Assembly: GCF_036702645.1 (NCBI RefSeq)
Contig: NZ_JAUBUO010000016.1
Coordinates: forward strand, 1-28,185
Reading direction: 5' to 3'
DNA: 28,185 nt
Source: Microcoleus sp. Aus8_D1
GTDB lineage: Bacteria > Cyanobacteriota > Cyanobacteriia > Cyanobacteriales > Microcoleaceae
The notes beneath the pieces were generated by a model, which was given only the letters and a program-made list of their open reading frames with translations, had not been told where the DNA came from and did not search any database. A program made the translations under genes and the position numbers. Shown here one piece after another: positions 157 through 17,933 of this stretch (position 1 is its first letter; each line of letters starts with the position of its first letter).

Positions 157-489
157 ATGGCACAACTAGCCGAGTTTTCCTTAGAAGATGGCACTACATT
201 TTTAGTAGAAATAGAAGAGCCAGAATCCCGAACTATCCAACGAGTCGCACTGCCTTCCGGACAGATGGTTGTCAAAGCTCAACAAAGTTTTGAACAAGCT
301 CTCGATCGAATTAAACCTGTAGCATCTACTATTCTTTCTAAACTCAAGGACTTAAATACTCCTGCTGATGAAGTAGAGGTCAAGTTTGGCATTAAACTGA
401 CGGCCGATGCTGGAGCAGTATTTACATCAATTGGAGGGGAAGTCAATTACGAGATTACCCTGAAATGGAAGCAGAATAAATCAAGTTAA
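157..489 (+). CDS. Small (110 aa) Trypco1-like (trypsin co-occurring domain) protein
   Basis: ORF ends 8 bp before a trypsin-like protease gene. The C-terminal segment DEVEVKFGIKLTADAGAVFTSIGGEVNYEITLKW resembles the conserved core of small trypsin-associated proteins (EVEFGxKxxAEAGAxIAKAGGEANFKVTLxW). Family assignment is from memory, not a search. Confidence 0.6.
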   Translation: MAQLAEFSLEDGTTFLVEIEEPESRTIQRVALPSGQMVVKAQQSFEQALDRIKPVASTILSKLKDLNTPADEVEVKFGIKLTADAGAVFTSIGGEVNYEITLKWKQNKSS

Positions 490-496
490 TCTCATC

Positions 497-1372
497 ATGA
501 ATAACAACTATTTTCAAGCTTTTAAAGGAGCGATCGCCCGCATATATCACGCTAATGGCGCAGTAGTTGGAGCGGGTTTTTTAGTATCCGATCGCTATCT
601 GATTACCTGTGCTCATGTTGTCGCAGCAGCTTTGAGTATTGCTCAGAACACTCAAGAACAGCCAACTGGTACGATCGAATTAGATTTTCCGCTAATTGCA
701 GCAGGGCAAAAAGTAAAGTCCAAGGTTGTATTCTGGCAGCCAGTTAATCCATCGCTCTCCGGAGAAGACATTGCCGGGTTAGAATTAGAGGGTAGTTTGC
801 CTAACATACAACCAGTATACTTGGTTGGTGCTGAAGATTATTGGCAGCATCCGATCAGAATTTTTGGATTTCCACAGGGGCACGATCTGGGAATATGGGC
901 AACTGCCACTCTGCGCGATCGCACTGCAAATAACTGGGTGCAAATAGATGCTGTAGCAGCTCAAAATCGGCCCGTTGAACAAGGGTTTAGCGGTGCGCCT
1001 GTATGGGATGAATCGCTGCAAGGAGTAGTCGGAATGGCGGTAGCGGCAGAAAAGCGACGAACAGATGTGACCGCTGCATTTATGATTCCTACTGCAATTT
1101 TACGAGGTGCATGGTTGGATTTAGAGCGATCGATCGCACACAATCCTTCGTCCATGAGGCAATCTCTTGATAGTTTGCCATCTTTTCGCCAAGTAAAGTT
1201 GAAGGCCTTAAAAAGTAACTACTCTATCTTGTGCGCTAAGTATGAAGCAGCTTACAATCAGCTTGGCTACACCTTAAATGACACTGATATTGTTAGCCTT
1301 AAACAGAAAATCAAAGGTCTCGAAACAGAAATCATGACATTAGAACGAGAAATTGATAGTTTATCTAACTGA
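497..1372 (+). CDS. Trypsin-like (S1/chymotrypsin fold) serine peptidase with C-terminal coiled-coil / EAD-like module
   Basis: LITCAHVV (catalytic His) and GFSGAPVW (catalytic Ser, GxSGxP) motifs. The C-terminal 60 aa are heptad-like (KQKIKGLETEIMTLEREIDSL) and homologous to the N-terminus of the next gene. Confidence 0.85.
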   Translation: MNNNYFQAFKGAIARIYHANGAVVGAGFLVSDRYLITCAHVVAAALSIAQNTQEQPTGTIELDFPLIAAGQKVKSKVVFWQPVNPSLSGEDIAGLELEGSLPNIQPVYLVGAEDYWQHPIRIFGFPQGHDLGIWATATLRDRTANNWVQIDAVAAQNRPVEQGFSGAPVWDESLQGVVGMAVAAEKRRTDVTAAFMIPTAILRGAWLDLERSIAHNPSSMRQSLDSLPSFRQVKLKALKSNYSILCAKYEAAYNQLGYTLNDTDIVSLKQKIKGLETEIMTLEREIDSLSN

Positions 1373-1382
1373 ATAGTTATCT

Positions 1383-2447
1383 ATGAATAATAAAAACAAC
1401 AATGAAAAGTTAATTGTTCGCAAAAAACAATATTTAGAGCTTCTATACAAACAATTTGATTCAGCTTATACACAATTGGAAACAACAGTAAATGAGTTTG
1501 ATAAACCTTCTATTCAAGCGAAAATCAAAGTTTTAGAGAACCAGATAGAACAAGTACACAAAGAAATTGACAACTTAGAATTACGCTCATCTCAAACAGG
1601 CAATGATTCGCATCCGCAATCTGGGAACTTCATCGAAAAATTGGGTAATGGCGTCCAGCTAGAAATGCTACATATTCCTCAAGGCAGCTTCTTAATGGGT
1701 TCGCCAGAAAATGAACTTGAGAGAAGCAACGATGAAGGCCCTCCGCACCCAGTGACTGTCCCAGCTTTCTTTATGGGCAAATATCCTGTCACCCAAGCTC
1801 AATGGAAAATTGTAGCAAATCTGCCTCAAGTTAACCGCGAACTCAATCCAGATCCTTCATGTTTCAAAGGTGTGAATCGCCCTGTTGAAACGGTTTCTTG
1901 GTATGATGCCGTCGAATTTTGTGCTCGCCTCTCCCTAGAAACTGGCAAGACTTACCGCTTACCCAGTGAAGCAGAATGGGAATACGCCTGTCGCGCTGGG
2001 ACAAACACGCCGTTTCACTTTGGGGAAACAATTACGACAGATTTAGCCAATTATAATGGTAATTATACTTATGCTGCTGGGTCTAAAGGAATTTACCGCG
2101 AACAAACAATGCCTGTGGGTAGTTTTGGGGTAGCCAATGCCTTTGGACTCTACGATATGCACGGAAACGTCTGGGAGTGGTGTGCAGACCCTTGGCATGA
2201 TAGTTATGACGGTGCGCCTGGTGATGGTAGGGTTTGGGATGAGACTTGTAATGATAATCGTTATCAAAACAGCATTGATTTATTAGTCCATACTGAGGCA
2301 AAAGATAACCGAACTCGGCTGCTGCGCGGTGGTTCGTGGCTCGTCTATCCGAGGAACTGCCGTTCGGCGATTCGCCTCAACCATGCGCCGGACATCGTCA
2401 ACTTCCTCAACGGTTTTCGGGTTGTGTGTGTCGCTGCGTGGACTTAA
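1383..2447 (+). CDS. FGE-sulfatase (SUMF1/formylglycine-generating-enzyme fold, FGS) domain protein with N-terminal coiled-coil module
   Basis: Motifs [58 protein letters not shown] and RLLRGGSW are diagnostic of the FGE-sulfatase fold. The N-terminal 60 aa are coiled-coil. Confidence 0.9.
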
Positions 2448-2532: not shown

Positions 2533-2615
2533 GCCTTTGTCAACCATCTATGCCTAACAGAATTTTGGGATATTTTTTATATTTGCCAGGTCAAATATTG
2601 AGATAATTTCAGAAT

Positions 2616-2808
2616 TTGTAGGGGCAGGTTCACCAACAATTCATGGCACAAACAAATAATATTGTCAACCCGCCCCACCCAACAGACAATCAAAATGTAC
2701 CAGAAATTTATTGGTAAGATGTTAATCTGAATTTATCGTGTGGTGGGGGCGGGTTTTTGTAAATTATTTGTGGGTTTTAGAGATGGTTGGTGAACCCGCC
2801 CCTACAGG
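2616..2808. repeat. REP/BIME-like nested palindromic element, copy 1 (about 193 bp)
   Basis: Outer arms TGTAGGGGCAGGTTCACC and GGTGAACCCGCCCCTACAGG; inner arms AACCCGCCCCACCC and GGTGGGGGCGGGTT. GTAG head. Preceded by a 55-bp spacer that is itself repeated. Confidence 0.85.
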
Positions 2809-2863
2809 ATTATCGGATATTTTTTTGTATTTGCCAGGTCAAATATTGAGATAATTTCAGAAT

Positions 2864-3056
2864 TTGTAGGGGCGGGTTCACCAACAATTCATGGCAAAAA
2901 TGAATGATGTTGTAAACCCGCCCCACCCAACAGACAATCAAAATGTACCAAAAATTTATTGGGTAAGATGTTGATGTGAATTTATCGTGTGGTGGGGGCG
3001 GGTTTGTGAAATTGTTGGTCTGTTTTGTAGATGGTTGGTGAACCCACCCCTACAGG
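2864..3056. repeat. REP/BIME-like nested palindromic element, copy 2 (tandem with copy 1, includes the 55-bp spacer)
   Basis: Near-identical to copy 1; the preceding spacer gtatttgccaggtcaaatattgagataatttcagaattt (inside the 55-bp inter-copy spacer 2809-2863) is duplicated at 2563-2615. Confidence 0.85.
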
Positions 3057-3091
3057 CTGTATAATTATAATGTTGTATTTTTACAAAAATC

Positions 3092-3652
3092 ATGAAATAC
3101 AATCCTCATATCCATCATCGCCGTTCTATTCGTCTACCAGGATACGACTATAGCCAATCAGGTGCATATTTTGTAACAATTTGTATTTGGCAACGTGAAT
3201 GTTTATTAAGTGAGATTCAAGAGGGGAATGTTTTATTAAGCCGCTACGGTGAAGTCGTTAACTTTAATTGGTTTAATCTCACAAGGGTGTATCCTCATAT
3301 TGAATTAGATTCCTTTGTGATTATGCCAAATCATATTCATGGAATTATTCTCATAAAACAACGGAATAAACGTCAGGGTTTATCGGAAATTGTGAGAGGT
3401 TTAAAAACCTTTTCTTCCCGGCGGATCAATCAAATACGTTCTGTTTCACAAATACCTGTATGGCAAAGGGGTTATTATGAACATATTATTCGCAATGAGG
3501 CAACATTCTCGAAAATTCAGGAATATATTATAAATAATCCGTTTAAGTGGGAAATGGATGAAATGCACCCATCACAAAAGTTTTACTATTCTAATAAAAT
3601 TGATATTAAATTAGATAGTGAAAATGTATTGCCGATGAATTTATCATTATAG
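3092..3652 (+). CDS. REP-associated tyrosine transposase (RAYT, TnpA_REP; IS200/IS605-like Y1 HUH enzyme)
   Basis: N-terminus HRRSIRLPGYDYSQSGAYFVTICI, HUH motif NHIHGIIL and catalytic-Tyr motif WQRGYYEHIIRNE. Flanked on both sides by REP-like palindromes. Confidence 0.85.
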   Translation: MKYNPHIHHRRSIRLPGYDYSQSGAYFVTICIWQRECLLSEIQEGNVLLSRYGEVVNFNWFNLTRVYPHIELDSFVIMPNHIHGIILIKQRNKRQGLSEIVRGLKTFSSRRINQIRSVSQIPVWQRGYYEHIIRNEATFSKIQEYIINNPFKWEMDEMHPSQKFYYSNKIDIKLDSENVLPMNLSL

Positions 3653-3662
3653 TAACCCAAAT

Positions 3663-3853
3663 CTGTAGGGGCGGGTTCACCAATAACTCATGGCAAAAAT
3701 GAATGATATTGTAAACCCGCCCCACCCAACGAACAATTAAAATGTACGATAAATTTATTGGTGATATGTTGATGTGAATTTATCGTGGGGTGGGGGCGGG
3801 TTTGTGAGATTGTTGGTCTGTTTTGTAGATGGTTGGTGAACCCGCCCCTACAG
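3663..3853. repeat. REP/BIME-like nested palindromic element, copy 3
   Basis: Same outer and inner arms as copies 1 and 2. Confidence 0.85.
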
Positions 3854-3896
3854 TATTTGGGATGTTTTTTTGTTTAAAATATAGATGGAATTTTAA

Positions 3897-4090
3897 GGTG
3901 GGTGGGGGCGGGTTCACCCACCATCTATCGGGAAAATGAATGATATTGTAAACCCGCCCCCACCCAACGAACAATTAAAATGTACGATTGATTTATTGGT
4001 AAGATGTTGATGTGAATTTATCGTGGGGTGGGGGCGGGTTTGTGAGATTGTTTGTGGGTTTCAGAGATGTCGGCGAACCCGCCCCTACAG
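3897..4090. repeat. REP/BIME-like nested palindromic element, copy 4 (variant left arm GGTGGGTGGGGGCGGGTTCACCC)
   Basis: Shares the inner arms and the right outer arm CGAACCCGCCCCTACAGG. Confidence 0.8.
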
Positions 4091-4148
4091 GATTTTGGGA
4101 TGTTTGTTTGGAAATTCATTGGTTAAATATTTATGTAATTTAATTGTC

Positions 4149-4339
4149 TGTAGGGGCGGGTTCACCAACAATTTATGGCACAAACAAATAATATTGTAAA
4201 CCCGCCCCCACCCAACAGACAATTAAAATGTACGATGAATTTATTGGTAAGATGTTGATGTAAATTTATCGTGTGGTGGGGGCGGGTTTGTGAGATTGTT
4301 TGTGGGTTTCAGAGATGTCGGCGAACCCGCCCCTACAGG
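4149..4339. repeat. REP/BIME-like nested palindromic element, copy 5
   Basis: CTGTAGGGGCGGGTTCACCAAC ... GGCGAACCCGCCCCTACAGG. Confidence 0.85.
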
Positions 4340-4392
4340 ATTTGGGGATGTTTTTTTTATTTTATTAGTTCAATAATATCAATAATCTGCGG

Positions 4393-8413: not shown

Positions 8414-10516
8414 TTAAGCCGCAACTAAACCGCTGTGTTTCAACAAAGCTTTAGTGCTCGGTTCGCGTCCCCGGAAAGTTTTAAACACTTCCATCGGGTG
8501 CAAACTGCCACCCAATCCTAACACTGTATCTCGGAAGCGTTTACCTGTAGAGCCGATCGCACTTTCATCTTCCAAACCAGCCTCCTCAAACGCCGCAAAA
8601 GCATCAGCACTCAGCACTTCCGCCCATTTATAGCTGTAATAGCCCGCCGCGTAACCGCCCGCAAAAATGTGTCCGAAAGCGCACAAAAATGCGTCTCCTT
8701 CCAGAGGAGGCAAAACAGTCGTAGTTTTAGCAATGCGCTTGCGGACATCCGCCACAGTTTCGCTGCCGCCCGATCGATAGCGGTGGTGCAATTCGATGTC
8801 AACACTGCTAAGATGTACTTGCCTGAGCATGGCACTGCCGCTCATGTAGTGGCGCGCTGCTAGCAGCTTTTGGTAATAGTGTTCCGGCAAATTTTCCCCG
8901 GTTTGGTAATGCTTTGCCATCCCGAACAAAGTCGCCCTATCGTAACACCAATTTTCCATAAATTGACTGGGCAATTCCACCGCATCCCACTCAACATTAT
9001 TGATGCCAGAAGCCCCCGGATAGTCTACCGTTGTCAGCATATGCTGCAAACCGTGACCGAATTCGTGAAACAAAGTTTCTACTTCCAAGAAAGTCATTAA
9101 ACTCGGTTTTCCGTCAACCGGAGGACTTTGGTTGCACACCAAATACGCCACCGGTAAACGCGTTGTTGTCTTGCCCGCTTCCACAAATTTAGCGCGCACC
9201 ACGCACTCGTTCATCCAAGCACCGCCGCGCTTTTCCTCGGGGCGGCTGTAGGGGTCTAAATAGAAATTGGCGAGCGTATTTCCCGCTTCATCATCTATTC
9301 TGAAATAGCGCACATCTTTGTGCCACACAGGAGCTTGACCGTCCGCCGCAGTTACTGTCACGCCGAACAGCCTTTTTACTAATCCAAACAACCCCTCCAA
9401 TACCTGCGGCAAAGCAAAATAAGGGCGCAATTCTTCGGCACTAAAAGCAAACTTTTTTTCCCGCTGCCGTTCCGACCAAAAACCAATATCCCAGTGCTTC
9501 AAATCCGCAGCTTCCGGCGCGCATGAGGTGGCAGCAAAAGCTTTCAATTCTTCTAAATCTTTGACAGCAGCGCTGTAACTAGCTAAGCGCAATTCTTCTA
9601 ACAAAGCTTCCACTGCTGTAACGTTAGGAGCCATTTTGCTCGCCAAGCTCAATTCGGCATAACTGCTAAACCCGAGCAAAGCTCCTTTTTCCTGGCGCAG
9701 TGCTAAAATGCGATCGGTCAAAGGCCAGTTATTCAATTCTCCGCTACTGGCTCTGCTGATAAAAGCTTTGTACAACTTTTCGCGCAAATCGCGGCGAGTG
9801 CTGTGCTGCATGAAAGGGCCGTAACTCGGGAAGTCTAAAGTAATCCGCCAAGGGCCATTTTCCGCATCGGCATTTTCGGCGCCGGCACTGCGAGCCGCTT
9901 GAGCTGCTAAACTCAACAAACTTGGCGGTAAACCGTCAATTTCGTCTTTGTTTGTGAGGGTGATACTGAAAGCTTTGGTAGCGTCGAGGACGTGATTGGA
10001 AAATTGGGTAGTAATTTCGGCCATTTCTAATTGAATGGCATTGAAACGCTCTTTTTGCTCGCCTTCTAAACCGACGCCGGAAAGTTGAGCATCTCGGAGG
10101 GAAGCTTCGACAATTCGCTGTTGAGCTGACTCTAAACTGTCCCAATTTTCGATCGCCCGCAGCGCTTTAAAAGCTTCGTAAAGCGGTTTGCTTTGACTGA
10201 GCTTGCTCCAAAATTTTACTACTTCCGGCTGCACTGTTTCGTGAGCCGATCGCAATTCCGGGCTATTTTTCACCCCCATCAAATGTCCGACAATGCTCCA
10301 AGTCCAATTTAAACGCTCTCCGAGCCGCTGCAATGGTTCAACTAAGCCGCTCCAAGTCGGCTCGACAGAGGCTTCTAAGGCAGCTAGCTCGGCTTCTAGT
10401 TCGCTCAGAAGTTGGGTAACGGCGGGGACTACGTGTTCTGGTGCGATCGCATCAAACGGTGGCAATCCTTTGCCAATTAATAACGGGTTATCAGTAACAG
10501 TTACGGTTGCGGTCAT
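8414..10516 (-). CDS. prlC: Oligopeptidase A / M3-family zinc metallopeptidase
   Basis: 700 aa; HEFGHGLQHML zinc-binding HExxH motif; N-terminus NPLLIGKGLPPFDAIAPEHVVPAV typical of OpdA/Dcp. Confidence 0.9.
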   Translation of the reverse strand: MTATVTVTDNPLLIGKGLPPFDAIAPEHVVPAVTQLLSELEAELAALEASVEPTWSGLVEPLQRLGERLNWTWSIVGHLMGVKNSPELRSAHETVQPEVVKFWSKLSQSKPLYEAFKALRAIENWDSLESAQQRIVEASLRDAQLSGVGLEGEQKERFNAIQLEMAEITTQFSNHVLDATKAFSITLTNKDEIDGLPPSLLSLAAQAARSAGAENADAENGPWRITLDFPSYGPFMQHSTRRDLREKLYKAFISRASSGELNNWPLTDRILALRQEKGALLGFSSYAELSLASKMAPNVTAVEALLEELRLASYSAAVKDLEELKAFAATSCAPEAADLKHWDIGFWSERQREKKFAFSAEELRPYFALPQVLEGLFGLVKRLFGVTVTAADGQAPVWHKDVRYFRIDDEAGNTLANFYLDPYSRPEEKRGGAWMNECVVRAKFVEAGKTTTRLPVAYLVCNQSPPVDGKPSLMTFLEVETLFHEFGHGLQHMLTTVDYPGASGINNVEWDAVELPSQFMENWCYDRATLFGMAKHYQTGENLPEHYYQKLLAARHYMSGSAMLRQVHLSSVDIELHHRYRSGGSETVADVRKRIAKTTTVLPPLEGDAFLCAFGHIFAGGYAAGYYSYKWAEVLSADAFAAFEEAGLEDESAIGSTGKRFRDTVLGLGGSLHPMEVFKTFRGREPSTKALLKHSGLVAA

Positions 10517-10607
10517 TTAATTTTCTTGTAACAGGTTGAAAACAGGTGAACTAGACAGATTACCTTTTCAATTTGTAACACAGTTGTCCAAAAAGTCGGA
10601 CTCCAGC

Positions 10608-10710
10608 CGGGAGAGGGAGAGAATGGGAGAAGGGAAGAGGGGGAGAAGGGGAGAAGGGGAGAGGGGGAGAGGGGGAGAGGGGGAGAGGGGGAGAGGGAGA
10701 GAAGGAGAAA
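10608..10710 (+). repeat. Roughly 100-bp polypurine tract with a (GGGGGAGA)n / (GGGGAGAA)n core; G4- or triplex-prone
   Basis: gggagagggagagaatgggagaagggaagagggggagaaggggagaaggggagagggggagagggggagagggggagagggggagagggagagaaggagaaaa; all purine on the + strand. Confidence 0.85.
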
Positions 10711-10730
10711 ATCTTCCTTCTGACTGATGA

Positions 10731-10837
10731 CCAACTGCCAACTATCAACTGCCAACTGCCAACTGCCAACTATCAACTGCCAACTGCCAACTATCAACTG
10801 CCAACTGCCAACTGTCAACTGTCAACTGTCAACTATC
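10731..10837. repeat. STRR-like heptamer array (CAACTGC/CAACTAT/CAACTGT)n, about 15 units
   Basis: Direct reading. The reverse complement of the same unit recurs at 23791-23825. Confidence 0.85.
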
Positions 10838-12341: not shown

Positions 12342-13730
12342 TGGTGATAACCCTTTGATATATTGCTTCAGTACAGGTGGCAAAGTGTAAAGGCTTTCCT
12401 GTTTTTCGATCGAGCAGCGTCGCGAGAGAGATTGCAATGCGTTTAGCAAATTTGATGATGATATTTGTCCGTTTTGTAGCAATTTGGCGACGTTGACTGG
12501 CTGGTTTTCTGTCGCCAACAATGACATGACTTGTTTTTCGAGTTCGGAAGTGCGATCGTACTGCTCATGTAAAACATCTTTTAAATCTTCGGGTAACAAT
12601 ATGGTATCATCTATTAATAACTCATTCGCGCCGATGCCCAACTCTTGAATCAGAGTCGCCACGCTTTTTAACCATAACGGGTTGCCTTGGTAGCGGTGAA
12701 TGAGTGCTTCGCAGTTATCGATTTCTGCTAATCCTTTATCTCTGAGGATTTCCCGTGCGGCCGCAGTGTCTAAACCAGTGAGTTGTAAAGTCCGAATGGG
12801 AGTATTTTCGCTGGTGAGTTGAGGAACTTCTTTCGGCGGTTCCCAACCGATTAGCAGAAAGCAACTTTGATGGGATAATGTCTCTATTTGTTTGAATAAG
12901 GAGCGATATTCTTCGTATTCGGGTTTATACTTTCCTGCCAATTCGCCGCTACAGAAAAGGTTGTGAACGTCATCTAAGACTATTAAACAGCGATGGTTTT
13001 GTAAATATTTAATCAGCGGTAAGCGTTTCTGGTTGTTTGAGGATGAATCTTGTTTTTCTGACTGGGAAAAAAGCTGTATTAGGTTAGATTTAAATTTATC
13101 GATGGTGGGGAATTCGTCTAGGGTGCACCAAACTGCGTATTCAAACTCGTCTTTGATTTGTTTTACGAGTTGTACTGCTAGGGATGTTTTGCCGATGCCG
13201 AGTCGGCCGGTGAGGGTGATAAGGCGGCAGTTTTGTTGTAGAATCCAGGTTGTGAGGGTTTGGAGTTGAGGAGTGCGATCGAAGAAGTCGCCCAACTCCG
13301 GCATTTCGCTTAAATCTTGATGTAAAGTTTTAGTTTGTTTTGGGTTAGATGTTTCGTCATTATCTGGATGTGACGTTGATATATCTGGGGGGTGTCTTCC
13401 TTCTCCACAGGTATTAAAATTACCACTGATGTGTTGTTCTATGACGTTTTGTGTAAAGCTTGAAACATTAGAGACTTGAAACCTTTGAATTGCCGAGCGA
13501 AAATTCTTTTTATTGACATTTTCCCCCAACTCCTCTGAAAGTAATTGCCATAATTCCGAAGCCGCATTCCTAACACGACTTTCAGAACAGTCAAAGTCTT
13601 TGGCTACGTGCTTGTATGTCTCGTGTTGTACAGTTCCTTTCAGTACCGCCTCTTGTAAATCATCAAGGTGTTGACCCGTTTTCTCGAAGACTATGCGATC
13701 GGCGAAGTTTAACATTTCTTTGAGATTCAT
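12336..13730 (-). CDS. Short STAND (NB-ARC-like) NTPase with the cyanobacterial N-terminal HTH-like domain and no C-terminal repeat array
   Basis: Walker A LTGRLGIGKTSLAVQLV; Walker B-like CLIVLDDVHN. The N-terminus (LQEAVLKG...YKHVAKDF..SESRVRNAASELWQLLSEELGENVNKKNFRSAIQRF) matches the conserved N-domain of cyanobacterial NB-ARC/WD40 proteins. Confidence 0.85.
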   Translation of the reverse strand: MNLKEMLNFADRIVFEKTGQHLDDLQEAVLKGTVQHETYKHVAKDFDCSESRVRNAASELWQLLSEELGENVNKKNFRSAIQRFQVSNVSSFTQNVIEQHISGNFNTCGEGRHPPDISTSHPDNDETSNPKQTKTLHQDLSEMPELGDFFDRTPQLQTLTTWILQQNCRLITLTGRLGIGKTSLAVQLVKQIKDEFEYAVWCTLDEFPTIDKFKSNLIQLFSQSEKQDSSSNNQKRLPLIKYLQNHRCLIVLDDVHNLFCSGELAGKYKPEYEEYRSLFKQIETLSHQSCFLLIGWEPPKEVPQLTSENTPIRTLQLTGLDTAAAREILRDKGLAEIDNCEALIHRYQGNPLWLKSVATLIQELGIGANELLIDDTILLPEDLKDVLHEQYDRTSELEKQVMSLLATENQPVNVAKLLQNGQISSSNLLNALQSLSRRCSIEKQESLYTLPPVLKQYIKGLSPN

Positions 13731-13996
13731 CGGATCAAGAGGATGGAAAATTTTGTGTATTATAGCACAGGTAGAGACATTTTAGTATATTTTTAGATAT
13801 TTTAGTACATAACTAGATTTCAAGAGATTGAAGGTAGGAGAAGGTTGTCGGCAATATAGGACATTTTAGGGCTGGACAAACCTTTAATTTCTAAGGAATG
13901 ATGGGAGAATCCTCAATCGATCTCTGGTTATTGACTAAACCTACTGATGTCTGACGACAAGTAAGATCCGCTCTCTAGTATAAATGGAGGTTAACT

Positions 13997-14188
13997 ATGT
14001 CCAGTACCCATAACAACCAAGTGCCGATTTCTACTGTTGGTGATGGTTTTTGGTGGAACTACGATTTGTTTGATAAGCAGTCTCTATCTCCTTCGCTGAG
14101 TTCATCAAATCAGTGTTCATCAAAGCAGAGTTCATTCAGCTTATCTCCTTCACCTCGTCGCAGTGTGGGCGATACTTCTTCTAAGTAA
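13997..14188 (+). CDS. Candidate RiPP precursor peptide (63 aa) with a Ser-rich, one-Cys C-terminal core
   Basis: GGAGG RBS 6 nt upstream of ATG. Aromatic leader-like N-half (GDGFWWNYDLFDKQ) and core SLSPSLSSSNQCSSKQSSFSLSPSPRRSVGDTSSK. 82 bp upstream of ycaO on the same strand. Confidence 0.5.
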   Translation: MSSTHNNQVPISTVGDGFWWNYDLFDKQSLSPSLSSSNQCSSKQSSFSLSPSPRRSVGDTSSK

Positions 14189-14217
14189 GTTTCTAAATAT
14201 GAATGAATAATTAGCTA

Positions 14218-14251
14218 AGCATCTTGGCAGTTCTTAGAGACACAAGATGCT
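14218..14251 (+). promoter_or_regulatory. Intergenic stem-loop (9-bp stem AGCATCTTG/CAAGATGCT, 16-nt loop) between the precursor gene and ycaO; attenuator-like
   Basis: Direct reading; followed by a weak T-tract (tttct). Confidence 0.45.
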
Positions 14252-14269
14252 TTCTATCGGTACGGAAAC

Positions 14270-15586
14270 ATGAATATAGACTTAAACTGGCTTCCTCATC
14301 AAGCTCCTACAATCGACTTTAAGGCAACTCTGCATCCATCAAAAGAAATTGCATCACGTTGGTTTAACTTTCCACCTTACCATGACGAGCCGAAACTTTG
14401 GCATCTCTCTGCTCAAGTCAAACCCAGTATAGACATTAAAGATGAAAACTTACAGGAGGTCGCTGGAGGTTCGTCACTGGACTTTGATAGAGCTCTCGCA
14501 AAACTGGCGGGGGAAACCGTTGAGCGTTATGCGATCTCTAAGAATGTCAATCTGAACTTGAATGATTTACAATCATGGCAGGAATTGGTACAGCAAAATT
14601 TGTGTGCGCTAGATCCGTTCCAACTTGTGATTGGTGATGAACATCGACATAAATCGCGTCGTAACGATAAAATTTCATGGATTCAAGGATTTGATTTAAA
14701 CTTACAAGTTCCTGCACTTATTCCTGCACAGCTAGTCTTTGTTCCGCATATTTTTAGAGATAATGAAGCTGTTTGGAGATCCGCTGTATCAACAGGTGCG
14801 GCAGCACACTCTACACTTGAGGGAGCTTTATATGCTGGTCTTTGTGAAGTCGTAGAGAGAGACGCTTTTCAAATTGCTTGGCTTAGACAGTTAAGATTAA
14901 CTAGGATAAATATAACTACAGGTGATACTTACTTCTACAATTCTATCAATAAACTAATTGATGCTGGTAAAAGATATCATCTTCACTGTGAGCTATATCA
15001 GCTTCCTTGTTCTATTCCCTTATCTGTTTGCATGGCAGTTATTTGGGATAATACAGGTATTGGACCTCGGTGTTCTCTGGGTGCAAAATGTTCTCAATCA
15101 AGCTTAACAGCCTGTGTCGGAGCACTTGAGGAAGCTTACCAAATGCGTTCTTGGTTGCGATATACACTCAACAAGTCGGGAGCATTTTCAAAGAATAAGC
15201 CACTTGATACATTGCTCGATAGAGCGAGACATTGGTTAACACATGAAGCTTCAGAAGTTCTTAAAAGTTGGACTCAACAATTCAACAGTTCTATTTCTTT
15301 ATCTGAAAGACCCTCTGAACTTTCTCTTGGTGAATTAGTTGAGTCAGTTAAACAAGATGGAGGTACTGCATATTTCGTTGACTTAACAGCGAAATTACCT
15401 GAATGTCTGCATCAATTGGGTTGGCATATTACAAAGGTAATCATTCCAGAGTACCAACCGCTAAACTTAACGGAGTCAATGGAAGACTTCGCCTTGCTAA
15501 GAATTGATAATGCTTCTCAGCGTTTGAATGCTGAAGCTCTTATTCCAGCGGGAGAGAAATTTAGATATCCTCATCCTTTTTTGTGA
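14270..15586 (+). CDS. YcaO-domain protein (standalone, 438 aa)
   Basis: AGETVERYAIS (ExxER ATP-binding motif) and STGAAAHSTLEGALYAGLCEVVERDAF (YcaO signature). Confidence 0.9.
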   Translation: MNIDLNWLPHQAPTIDFKATLHPSKEIASRWFNFPPYHDEPKLWHLSAQVKPSIDIKDENLQEVAGGSSLDFDRALAKLAGETVERYAISKNVNLNLNDLQSWQELVQQNLCALDPFQLVIGDEHRHKSRRNDKISWIQGFDLNLQVPALIPAQLVFVPHIFRDNEAVWRSAVSTGAAAHSTLEGALYAGLCEVVERDAFQIAWLRQLRLTRINITTGDTYFYNSINKLIDAGKRYHLHCELYQLPCSIPLSVCMAVIWDNTGIGPRCSLGAKCSQSSLTACVGALEEAYQMRSWLRYTLNKSGAFSKNKPLDTLLDRARHWLTHEASEVLKSWTQQFNSSISLSERPSELSLGELVESVKQDGGTAYFVDLTAKLPECLHQLGWHITKVIIPEYQPLNLTESMEDFALLRIDNASQRLNAEALIPAGEKFRYPHPFL

Positions 15587-16372: not shown

Positions 16373-16507
16373 AGGATGCCCAAAAAAATGCTAAATATAT
16401 GGTCTCTTGGACTTTATGCTGAAAACGTAAATGAGTGGGGAAGTTTTCGACTCTATGATGAGTTTATTAGTTATATCCTTTCCCTGATTAGCGATTTAAA
16501 TGTGTAG

Positions 16508-16985: not shown

Positions 16986-17465
16986 TCAAAATTCCTCTTC
17001 TATAATCTTAAAAGTTCCCATACCCAGTTCCAGAGTAGGTGATGTTAAATTTTGTAGCCATTCCTGCCGAGTCACGCCACTACAATCTATATTATTAAAC
17101 ACAATTTCCTGTTCGTCGATTGTAATTGATATCCCTTGATCGTAGCCATTAGTAGCAATTTGCTGCTGTCGTCGTAAATCATAAATCACTGACCAAGGTA
17201 GGTCTTGCCTTTCTAAATCCAGTTTAATCTGCTTACCATGTAGGTTTCTGATGGTCAAGAACTCTTTGATAGCCTGACTGCATTCAACACATTGAAAGAC
17301 TCCATAGCGACTGGCAATTTTAGCGATATCTTCTCTAATTTCATCTAAACTACTGGGATCTAAACTCAAAGTGTAAAGTTTACCTCCTATATTTATGGAC
17401 AAGTATATCTCAAAATTATTGCCATTGAGTGCTCGACCGATCGCATAGGGTGCGCGCTCTTGCAA
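16986..17465 (-). CDS. Hypothetical protein (159 aa, TTG start); possible toxin-type C-terminal cassette
   Basis: ORF-track ORF. The reading frame stays open upstream through the repeat R, encoding RAIALATIIVLFGICCEGISRSLGKAL before the annotated start. Confidence 0.5.
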   Translation of the reverse strand: MQERAPYAIGRALNGNNFEIYLSINIGGKLYTLSLDPSSLDEIREDIAKIASRYGVFQCVECSQAIKEFLTIRNLHGKQIKLDLERQDLPWSVIYDLRRQQQIATNGYDQGISITIDEQEIVFNNIDCSGVTRQEWLQNLTSPTLELGMGTFKIIEEEF

Positions 17466-17639: not shown

Positions 17640-17933
17640 CTAATGCAAAAACTTGCCAACTTGATATTCGCGACTTTCGGCGATCGGCATTTGCAAATCC
17701 CCCATTTTGGCATCCAACTCATCGATTGTGCTTTGCTGCACCGACTTCCACTGTTCTTTAGTTTCCCAGCGAATCAACATCACCACCTCATTTTCCACCG
17801 CATCCACCCAAACTTCTTTGCCCAAAAAACCGGGGAAACTTCTTAATCCGGCCGTCCAAACTTCTTCATCTCGCAGAATAAACTGTTCCCATTTTTCCGG
17901 AGGTACTTTAAATCTCAGCCACTCAATTACCAT
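17640..17933 (-). CDS. Small hypothetical protein (97 aa), possibly ABM/Dabb-like
   Basis: MVIEWLRFKVPPEKWEQFILRDEEVW...VVMLIRWETKEQW pattern resembles antibiotic-biosynthesis-monooxygenase-like small proteins; tentative. Confidence 0.45.
   Translation of the reverse strand: MVIEWLRFKVPPEKWEQFILRDEEVWTAGLRSFPGFLGKEVWVDAVENEVVMLIRWETKEQWKSVQQSTIDELDAKMGDLQMPIAESREYQVGKFLH

Follow-up and report, generated by a model that had tools for sequence, protein, structure and literature searches.

A putative precursor-peptide family beside standalone YcaO and SagB-type dehydrogenase genes, with a repeat-built core in Microcoleus

In the biosynthesis of peptides that are ribosomally synthesized and then modified post-translationally (RiPPs), most azole-forming YcaO enzymes need an E1-like or RiPP recognition element (RRE) partner to hold the leader peptide. 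In linear azol(in)e-containing peptides (LAPs) or thiazole/oxazole-modified microcins (TOMMs), such as microcin B17 (McbABCD), streptolysin S (SagABCD) and plantazolicin, a short precursor, made up of an N-terminal leader and a core rich in Cys/Ser, is accompanied by a YcaO cyclodehydratase and a SagB/McbC-type flavin mononucleotide (FMN) dehydrogenase with a Lys-Tyr pair. We analyzed a 28,185-nt stretch of DNA from Microcoleus sp. Aus8_D1 (GCF_036702645.1, contig NZ_JAUBUO010000016.1, positions 1 to 28,185 of the forward strand; hereafter the window), in which a short open reading frame (ORF) at 13997–14188, which encodes such a leader and Cys/Ser-rich core, lies in the same way 5′ of genes for a YcaO cyclodehydratase homologue and a SagB/McbC-type dehydrogenase (Table 1). 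Our favored reading, to which we give a probability of roughly 0.7, is that this ORF would encode the precursor of a minimal RiPP operon with three genes (for precursor, standalone YcaO and SagB-type dehydrogenase), a partner-less azole pathway with a lineage-specific core derived by duplication. The reading rests on the observed gene order, homology, family conservation, repeat structure and allele pattern.

Unlike LAP and TOMM clusters, neither the window nor the related loci encode a recognizable partner: ThiF, E1-like, Ocin-ThiF and RRE/PqqD domains were absent from window ORFs of at least 90 aa (28 kb), and no E1-like “C” protein, Ocin-ThiF or RRE partner was found among the called genes of 15 family loci. 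The window YcaO also scored below the SagD-family cutoff (TIGR03604, 170.6 bits against 219.25), the window cluster has no protease or ABC exporter gene, and the family core shows conservation across phyla instead of hypervariability; the window copy has a single Cys. Bottromycin provides known cases of YcaOs (BotC and BotCD; PMC4603692; PMC8442711) that need no partner protein to act on a ribosomal peptide, but no specific relationship to them was detectable past the YcaO domain, the precursors are unrelated, and bottromycin clusters contain two YcaOs, methyltransferases and a follower peptide, with no adjacent SagB-type pair of the form seen in the window. The closest solved relatives of both window enzymes come from cyanobactin pathways (TruD/LynD/PatD, and the oxidase domain of CyaGox/ThcOx), which share a cyanobacterial host; those heterocyclases are fusions of ~780 aa with an N-terminal E1-like/RRE part, whereas the window encodes the YcaO part alone (438 aa), has no PatA/PatG proteases, and has a precursor without PatE-type recognition sequences or repeated cassettes. 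The locus further resembles the streptamidine-type standalone-YcaO RiPPs found by RiPPER, in which an unannotated precursor family was likewise defined by its position beside a distinct standalone-YcaO clade and the cluster includes a dehydrogenase (PMC8442711), but the phyla, precursor motifs and YcaO clade differ. Streptamidine requires a hydrolase and AmiB, a cryptic E1-like partner that sequence searches do not recognize (PMC8442711), and no equivalent ORF is conserved in the window family.

The ORF runs from an ATG at 13997 to a TAA at 14186–14188. A preliminary description, made from the letters of the sequence, had given its 63-aa translation and a strong GGAGG ribosome-binding site, and both were exact; AGGAGG occurs at the matching site in two related loci (L001/L002). 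That description also called the ORF precursor-like, which is borne out by its position directly 5′ of the YcaO and SagB-type dehydrogenase genes and by homologues at the same position in well-preserved loci. Related loci were defined as those of YcaO orthologues of 37–59% identity taken from genomes and metagenomes, and in every one with a preserved upstream region we found a 57–80-aa ORF directly 5′ of the YcaO gene that aligned with the window peptide (homologous small ORFs at the equivalent position in L001, L002, L013–L018, L098, L099, L100 and L102/L103). The exception, L012 (a contig of ERZ25084491, YcaO P0006), has lost from a canonical-type YcaO/SagB pair both the precursor and the gene for a STAND (signal transduction ATPase with numerous domains) protein, is surrounded by insertion sequence (IS) fragments (DDE_3, IS1), and is an instance of cluster decay within the precursor family. 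The order precursor, YcaO, SagB-type dehydrogenase was the same in all family loci examined, the window included, and these are the only genes common to all of them.

These comparisons also bear on whether the region could be a non-coding 5′ untranslated region (UTR), or an upstream ORF with a regulatory role that governs expression of the YcaO gene through a downstream hairpin, instead of encoding a substrate peptide. A conserved 10-bp hairpin does lie between the ORF and the YcaO gene, and a 249-nt run of perfect identity between Microcoleus alleles includes synonymous sites, which might hint at constraint at the nucleic-acid level. However, the peptide sequence is kept between loci whose DNA cannot be aligned and whose YcaOs are just 37–59% identical, the three substitutions between L001 and L002 within the ORF are all third-position and synonymous, and many family loci are too tight for the hairpin, with 4–40 nt between precursor and YcaO. 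An Rfam scan of 13600–14400 gave no match (E up to 1). We consider a UTR, which the preliminary description had named as grounds for refutation, or a regulatory ORF highly improbable, and the interpretation of the ORF as a genuine conserved precursor-peptide gene is strongly supported.

The leader is conserved in the homologous loci, which the preliminary description had proposed to check. About 10–20 residues from the N-terminus, family members carry the motif [PS][IV]S[TL][IV][GS]xxxWW, in which W19 is invariant and S12, T13 and W20 are at least 90% conserved in the family alignments. Of the FWWNYDLF segment suggested as a recognition element, the WW pair is therefore credible, whereas the NYDLF part is unconserved. 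The family core, ATQxQC(Q/S/K)S...GNGxC, is strongly conserved and often followed by a basic tail. A profile of canonical members, built without Microcoleus sequences, matched the window peptide at E 5e-10 in a two-sequence search.

The family appears to be small. A profile search with the family peptides matched 16 proteins among 5.8 billion, and an exhaustive hidden Markov model (HMM) search of 1.84 billion representatives gave 30 matches (E up to 0.001), of which some 25 were short peptides; in the HMM match that was checked (P0077), the peptide precedes a YcaO gene, a nitroreductase-family gene and an APH kinase gene. A metagenome scan with the YcaO alignment returned mainly distant YcaOs, with family precursors in L017 and L018 only. 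Among the members, the named ones are from Okeania (Cyanobacteria) and Pyrinomonadaceae (Acidobacteriota), and related ORFs also occur in metagenomes. When the window peptide and six canonical peptides of the family were scanned against Pfam and NCBIfam, nothing meaningful was found at E up to 10, and full-text literature searches with the core and leader motif strings found nothing relevant; searches for YcaO together with Microcoleus found no literature, and those for partner-less YcaO/SagB or YcaO plus APH clusters found general RiPP papers only. The window peptide is a divergent member of this hitherto unannotated family of precursors, and about 25 small proteins labeled “hypothetical” can be named as belonging to it. 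In one Pyrinomonadaceae locus (L015, 6327–9311), a Nif11-type precursor and a LanM-like lanthipeptide synthetase adjoin the YcaO/SagB cluster, placing two RiPP systems side by side.

Compared to the family core, that of the window is remodeled. In place of ATQxQCxS it reads SSSNQCSS, keeping QC.S alone with ATQ replaced by SSS, and at the GNGxC site it reads KQSSF, without the second conserved Cys; sister Microcoleus alleles read CSSGNQSSF at this site, retaining GN and also lacking the Cys. The alignment can be drawn in two ways, as the profile aligns the window Cys to QC, while the CSSGN of the sister alleles points instead to the second Cys of QCQSSCSSGNGGC (cyanobacterial subfamily). Over the C-terminal 37 residues, the window peptide has 18 Ser and 1 Cys.

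The preliminary description held that this core is built on a short DNA repeat, and this was confirmed in the form of a 15-nt unit present 2.5 times (Tandem Repeats Finder: period 15, 86% matches, score 62) together with an exact 10-mer, so that the peptide reads LSPS - SSSNQ - CSSKQ - SSF - SLSPS. The tandem copies are AGTTCATCAAATCAG / TGTTCATCAAAGCAG / AGTTCATTC; as first quoted they had the repeat right but the second copy wrong by one base, since its first base is the T of TGT, the Cys codon, and not an A. Both the sole Cys codon (14114–14116) and the stretch at which alleles differ most (14117–14125) fall within the tandem repeat. A 13/15 tandem match arose in 0.7% of whole-ORF and 2.2% of core-only codon shuffles, an exact 10-mer repeat in 2.9% and 2.2%, respectively, and both jointly in 0.2%. 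Since both exceed what codon shuffling would lead one to expect, the repeats are not due to Ser-rich composition alone, with the caveat that the genome is rich in short tandem repeats (22 Tandem Repeats Finder rows in 28 kb), where a small one is unremarkable.

We found five Microcoleus alleles on more than 30 contigs (63, 64, 64, 64 and 65 aa), with the ORF intact in all. Residues 1–40 do not differ between the five, and all variation comes after the Cys, in core and tail, so that the predicted pattern of a conserved leader and a variable core between strains holds within Microcoleus. Their cores follow SSSNQC(S/A)S(G)(N/K)QSSFSLSP, with a single Cys, in place of ATQxQCxS..GNGxC. Divergence between the window and allele L003 is 5.4% across the 4-kb cluster, and the two share 249 nt of perfect identity (13868–14116) spanning the promoter region, 5′ UTR, ribosome-binding site, leader and the first part of the core, as far as the Cys40 codon; this is the longest such run in the 4-kb alignment, the next being 137 nt. 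Directly after it, at 14117–14125, three substitutions and a 3-nt indel occur within 9 nt, all in the second repeat copy. The commoner alleles read TGT TCA TCT GGG AAT CAG (CSSGNQ) here and retain the CSSGN of the cyanobacterial canonical core, while the window allele reads TGT TCA TCA AAG CAG, which makes the tandem repeat more regular. The allele sequences in this copy indicate that the duplication is older than the alleles and that the repeat is a mutational hot spot. An origin of the Ser-rich core by frameshift of the canonical core was ruled out, because CSSGN is in frame in the sister alleles. The Ser-rich, repeat-built core is a peculiarity of the Microcoleus lineage, and the core of the wider family is highly conserved rather than hypervariable.

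The repeat had also been likened to those of multi-core precursors, with each unit a separate core and copy number varying between strains. The tandem repeat is genuine at the DNA level, and an indel between alleles does lie inside it, but the number of units is 2.5 in each of the five alleles, whose lengths differ by a one-codon indel and an altered C-terminus. Further points make this reading very unlikely: the units span five to six residues and lack repeated recognition or cleavage motifs on either side, the window ORFs include no cyanobactin-type macrocyclase or protease, and canonical family members have a single non-repetitive core. Neither the variable repeat number nor the likeness to multi-core precursors was upheld.

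The YcaO gene begins 81 bases 3′ of the precursor ORF and the dehydrogenase gene ten bases after YcaO; both encode full-length proteins that retain all clade-invariant residues, and the former is annotated at NCBI as “YcaO-like family protein” (unclassified Microcoleus). In the PDB, the nearest matches to a profile of the YcaO clade were TruD and LynD, followed by archaeal thioamidating YcaOs and MusD, and the profile aligned through to the final residues of TruD and LynD. The clade has an invariant C-terminus, PHPF(L/M), and a proline-rich C-terminus is characteristic of azoline-forming YcaOs (PMC8442711). An AlphaFold2 model of the window YcaO (pLDDT 87.8, pTM 0.91) had LynD as its best fold match (TM 0.73) and showed no extra RRE-like or N-terminal domain. 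PDB matches of the dehydrogenase were the BmdC oxidase, McbC and CyaGox, and its Lys-Tyr in “swiKYg” aligns with “alfKYr” of McbC, whose KY residues are catalytic (PMC8442711). More distant loci with the same YcaO/SagB pairing, also without a partner gene, have classic Cys-rich azole-type cores upstream (L019, L021).

This evidence also bears on whether the YcaO performs other backbone chemistry, thioamidation or amidine formation, instead of forming azolines. The enzyme is standalone, its TIGR03604 score lies under the cutoff, a single-sequence search of the PDB gave MJ1094 as the best match, and in the fold search the partner-independent, thioamide-forming YcaOs of M. kandleri and M. jannaschii matched nearly as well as LynD, so the fold does not settle the chemistry. 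By contrast, a SagB/McbC-type dehydrogenase with the catalytic Lys-Tyr is always adjacent, which is sensible only if azolines are made; no TfuA or sulfur-transfer gene was found among the window ORFs; cores are Cys/Ser-rich family-wide; and the clade profile is nearest TruD and LynD. Other backbone chemistry is accordingly improbable in our estimation.

Under the favored azole reading, we infer from homology and gene layout that the YcaO binds the leader, that azol(in)es form, which residues are modified and what the STAND protein and hairpin do. The peptide would be translated from the strong Shine-Dalgarno site, and the YcaO, with no E1-like, Ocin-ThiF or RRE partner encoded nearby, would directly bind the N-terminal leader carrying PISTVGxxxWW. 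Using ATP, it would cyclodehydrate Cys40, and possibly neighboring Ser residues, to azolines, which the FMN dehydrogenase would oxidize to azoles. In the Microcoleus lineage, the canonical core ATQxQCxS..GNGxC would have been remodeled to a Ser-rich, single-Cys sequence through small tandem duplications of a 15–18-nt unit, at the spot where present alleles differ. The operon would be transcribed divergently from the helix-turn-helix (HTH)-STAND NTPase gene.

Several observations weigh against this reading. In the window core, ATQ and the terminal Cys of GNGxC, both family-invariant, have been lost, and the window peptide may be a poor substrate or none at all. The cluster has neither a protease nor an exporter gene to account for maturation and fate of the product, and because AmiB escaped sequence searches, a cryptic partner could be encoded elsewhere. 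The near-equal fold match to thioamide-forming enzymes belongs here as well. In sister Microcoleus alleles, an intact gene for a 328-aa APH-fold kinase follows SagB directly (L003:4341–5327), and in the window strain this adjoining gene is deleted save its 3′ end. Finally, the ratio of nonsynonymous to synonymous substitution rates (dN/dS) of YcaO between Microcoleus alleles is 0.49, compared to 0.15–0.28 for most canonical pairs and up to 0.38 for very close ones, a value that is compatible with relaxed constraint and suggestive, not conclusive.

Some of these points would fit a relic precursor, in which the canonical core drifted by slippage and substitutions to a low-complexity Ser-rich sequence, the normal product was lost and the cluster is in slow decay. 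The missing ATQ, the missing terminal invariant Cys, the YcaO dN/dS of 0.49 and the deletion of ~930 nt of the kinase gene all point this way, as does allele L105, in which YcaO is called ~400 nt past the precursor stop (~80 nt in the others) with extra sequence after the hairpin, and the related L012, without precursor and STAND gene and flanked by IS elements. On the other hand, the ORF is intact in every allele, the 249 nt of leader and upstream region are perfectly conserved, and YcaO and SagB are full length with their clade-invariant residues and dN/dS below 1 (0.22 for SagB between Microcoleus alleles). Moreover, the canonical Cys sites are Ser here, depending on the alignment, and as Ser is still heterocyclizable, the change fits an altered product as well as decay. 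We regard a relic as unlikely, though worth keeping in view: the window precursor may be neofunctionalized or partly decaying, because the adjoining kinase gene has been deleted.

In the compact clade to which the window YcaO belongs, a precursor, a YcaO and a dehydrogenase appear sufficient, and the leader carries a clear, short, conserved motif, PISTVGxxxWW, making it a tractable system for how a standalone YcaO recognizes its substrate. Core conservation across phyla suggests that the function is conserved as well, a rarity among such peptides. At nucleotide resolution, the Microcoleus alleles place a frozen leader beside a repeat-driven core hot spot, a pattern often assumed for RiPP precursors and seldom seen between close strains. 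A wider proposal, which we put forward as doubtful but conceivable, is that the PISTVG-WW / ATQxQC...GNGxC peptides, with their partner-less YcaO and SagB-type dehydrogenase and sometimes an APH-fold kinase, form an undescribed RiPP class with a core conserved from Cyanobacteria to Acidobacteriota. If so, core conservation would suggest a fixed physiological role rather than that of a diversifying antibiotic, for example a metal-binding or signaling azole peptide under control of a STAND/HTH sensor; the YcaO would recognize its leader without any RRE; and the Microcoleus allele would be a natural experiment in Cys to Ser change by repeat-mediated remodeling.

APH-fold kinases may be a recurrent accessory of the pathway. 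Besides the Microcoleus alleles, a gene of this type follows SagB in a distant family locus (L102/L103), but the kinases of L003 and L103 share 25% identity over 80 aa only, and their common ancestry as a cluster component is unproven.

Upstream of the precursor gene, the STAND gene holds the same divergent position in all cyanobacterial loci with sufficient flank, and PF26355 (HTH_VMAP-M9) was detected on STAND orthologues in L003, L004, L013, L014 and L104. The HTH-STAND protein may be a regulator of the cluster, perhaps acting through the GA(C/T)ATTTTAG copies in the divergent intergenic region, where Tandem Repeats Finder reported a 20-nt repeat of 2.2 copies (13775–13818) and similar ACATTTT.G blocks align in L002. 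Between precursor and YcaO, the hairpin has a predicted RNA fold energy of −18.9 kcal/mol (z −2.24), and its stems are invariant in the five alleles with substitutions confined to loop and flanks; there is no covariation, and the structure is unproven. A terminator scan gave weak in-ORF candidates only, and the hairpin was not accepted as a called terminator, having no U-tract. It is a possible processing or stability element or partial terminator, and may set the ratio of precursor to enzyme transcript. The Rfam result for 13600–14400 (E up to 1) rules out a known riboswitch or leader RNA in this region.

Table 1 Features of the putative RiPP cluster and its surroundings, in window coordinates.
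Feature	Position	Strand	Remarks
STAND NTPase with N-terminal HTH (HTH_VMAP-M9 + NB-ARC), 464 aa	12336..13730	-	Pfam NB-ARC 4.1e-14; divergently transcribed
Three GA(C/T)ATTTTAG copies, candidate operator sites	13776-13785, 13796-13805, 13860-13869	+	Divergent intergenic region; proposed from sequence only
Shine-Dalgarno GGAGG	13986..13990	+	6 nt 5′ of precursor ATG
Precursor peptide gene	13997..14188	+	63 aa; NCBI MEG4320619.1, “hypothetical protein”, unclassified Microcoleus
Leader motif PISTVGDGFWW	14024..14056	+	Residues 10-20 of window peptide; family-wide conserved element
Exact 10-nt direct repeat TATCTCCTTC	14085-14094 and 14142-14151	+	Brackets tandem repeat; encodes LSPS twice
15-nt tandem repeat, 2.5 copies	14098..14135	+	Encodes SSSNQ / CSSKQ / SSF
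Perfect 10-bp stem (AAGCATCTTG / CAAGATGCTT), 16-nt loop	14217..14252	+	Between precursor stop and YcaO start
Standalone YcaO, presumed cyclodehydratase, 438 aa	14270..15586	+	Pfam YcaO PF02624 1.3e-43
SagB/McbC-type FMN dehydrogenase, 258 aa	15596..16372	+	TIGR03605 94.9 bits, over 78.4 cutoff
3′ remnant of APH-fold (APH/homoserine-kinase-like) kinase gene	16376..16507	+	~930 nt deleted in window

Just 3′ of the cluster, on the opposite strand, the window encodes a protein with a papain-fold toxin domain (16986–17465; Tox-PL-2, 1.8e-27) and a small ABM-fold protein of the TIGR03792 family (17640–17933). Further upstream, dense short tandem repeats at 10609–10837 (8 nt, 11.8 copies; 7 nt, 14.9 copies) overlap a 101-aa ORF (10513–10818) without a family match, probably an artefact of this repetition. 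An ORF for an IS200-like Y1 transposase (3092–3652) is flanked at 2557–4362 by two arrays of a 248-nt repeat, in 2.0 and 2.9 copies. At the start of the window (157–2447), genes for Trypco1, a trypsin-like protease with EAD9 and an FGE-sulfatase-domain protein with EAD9 form a three-gene set that looks like a conflict- or defense-type system with effector-associated domains.

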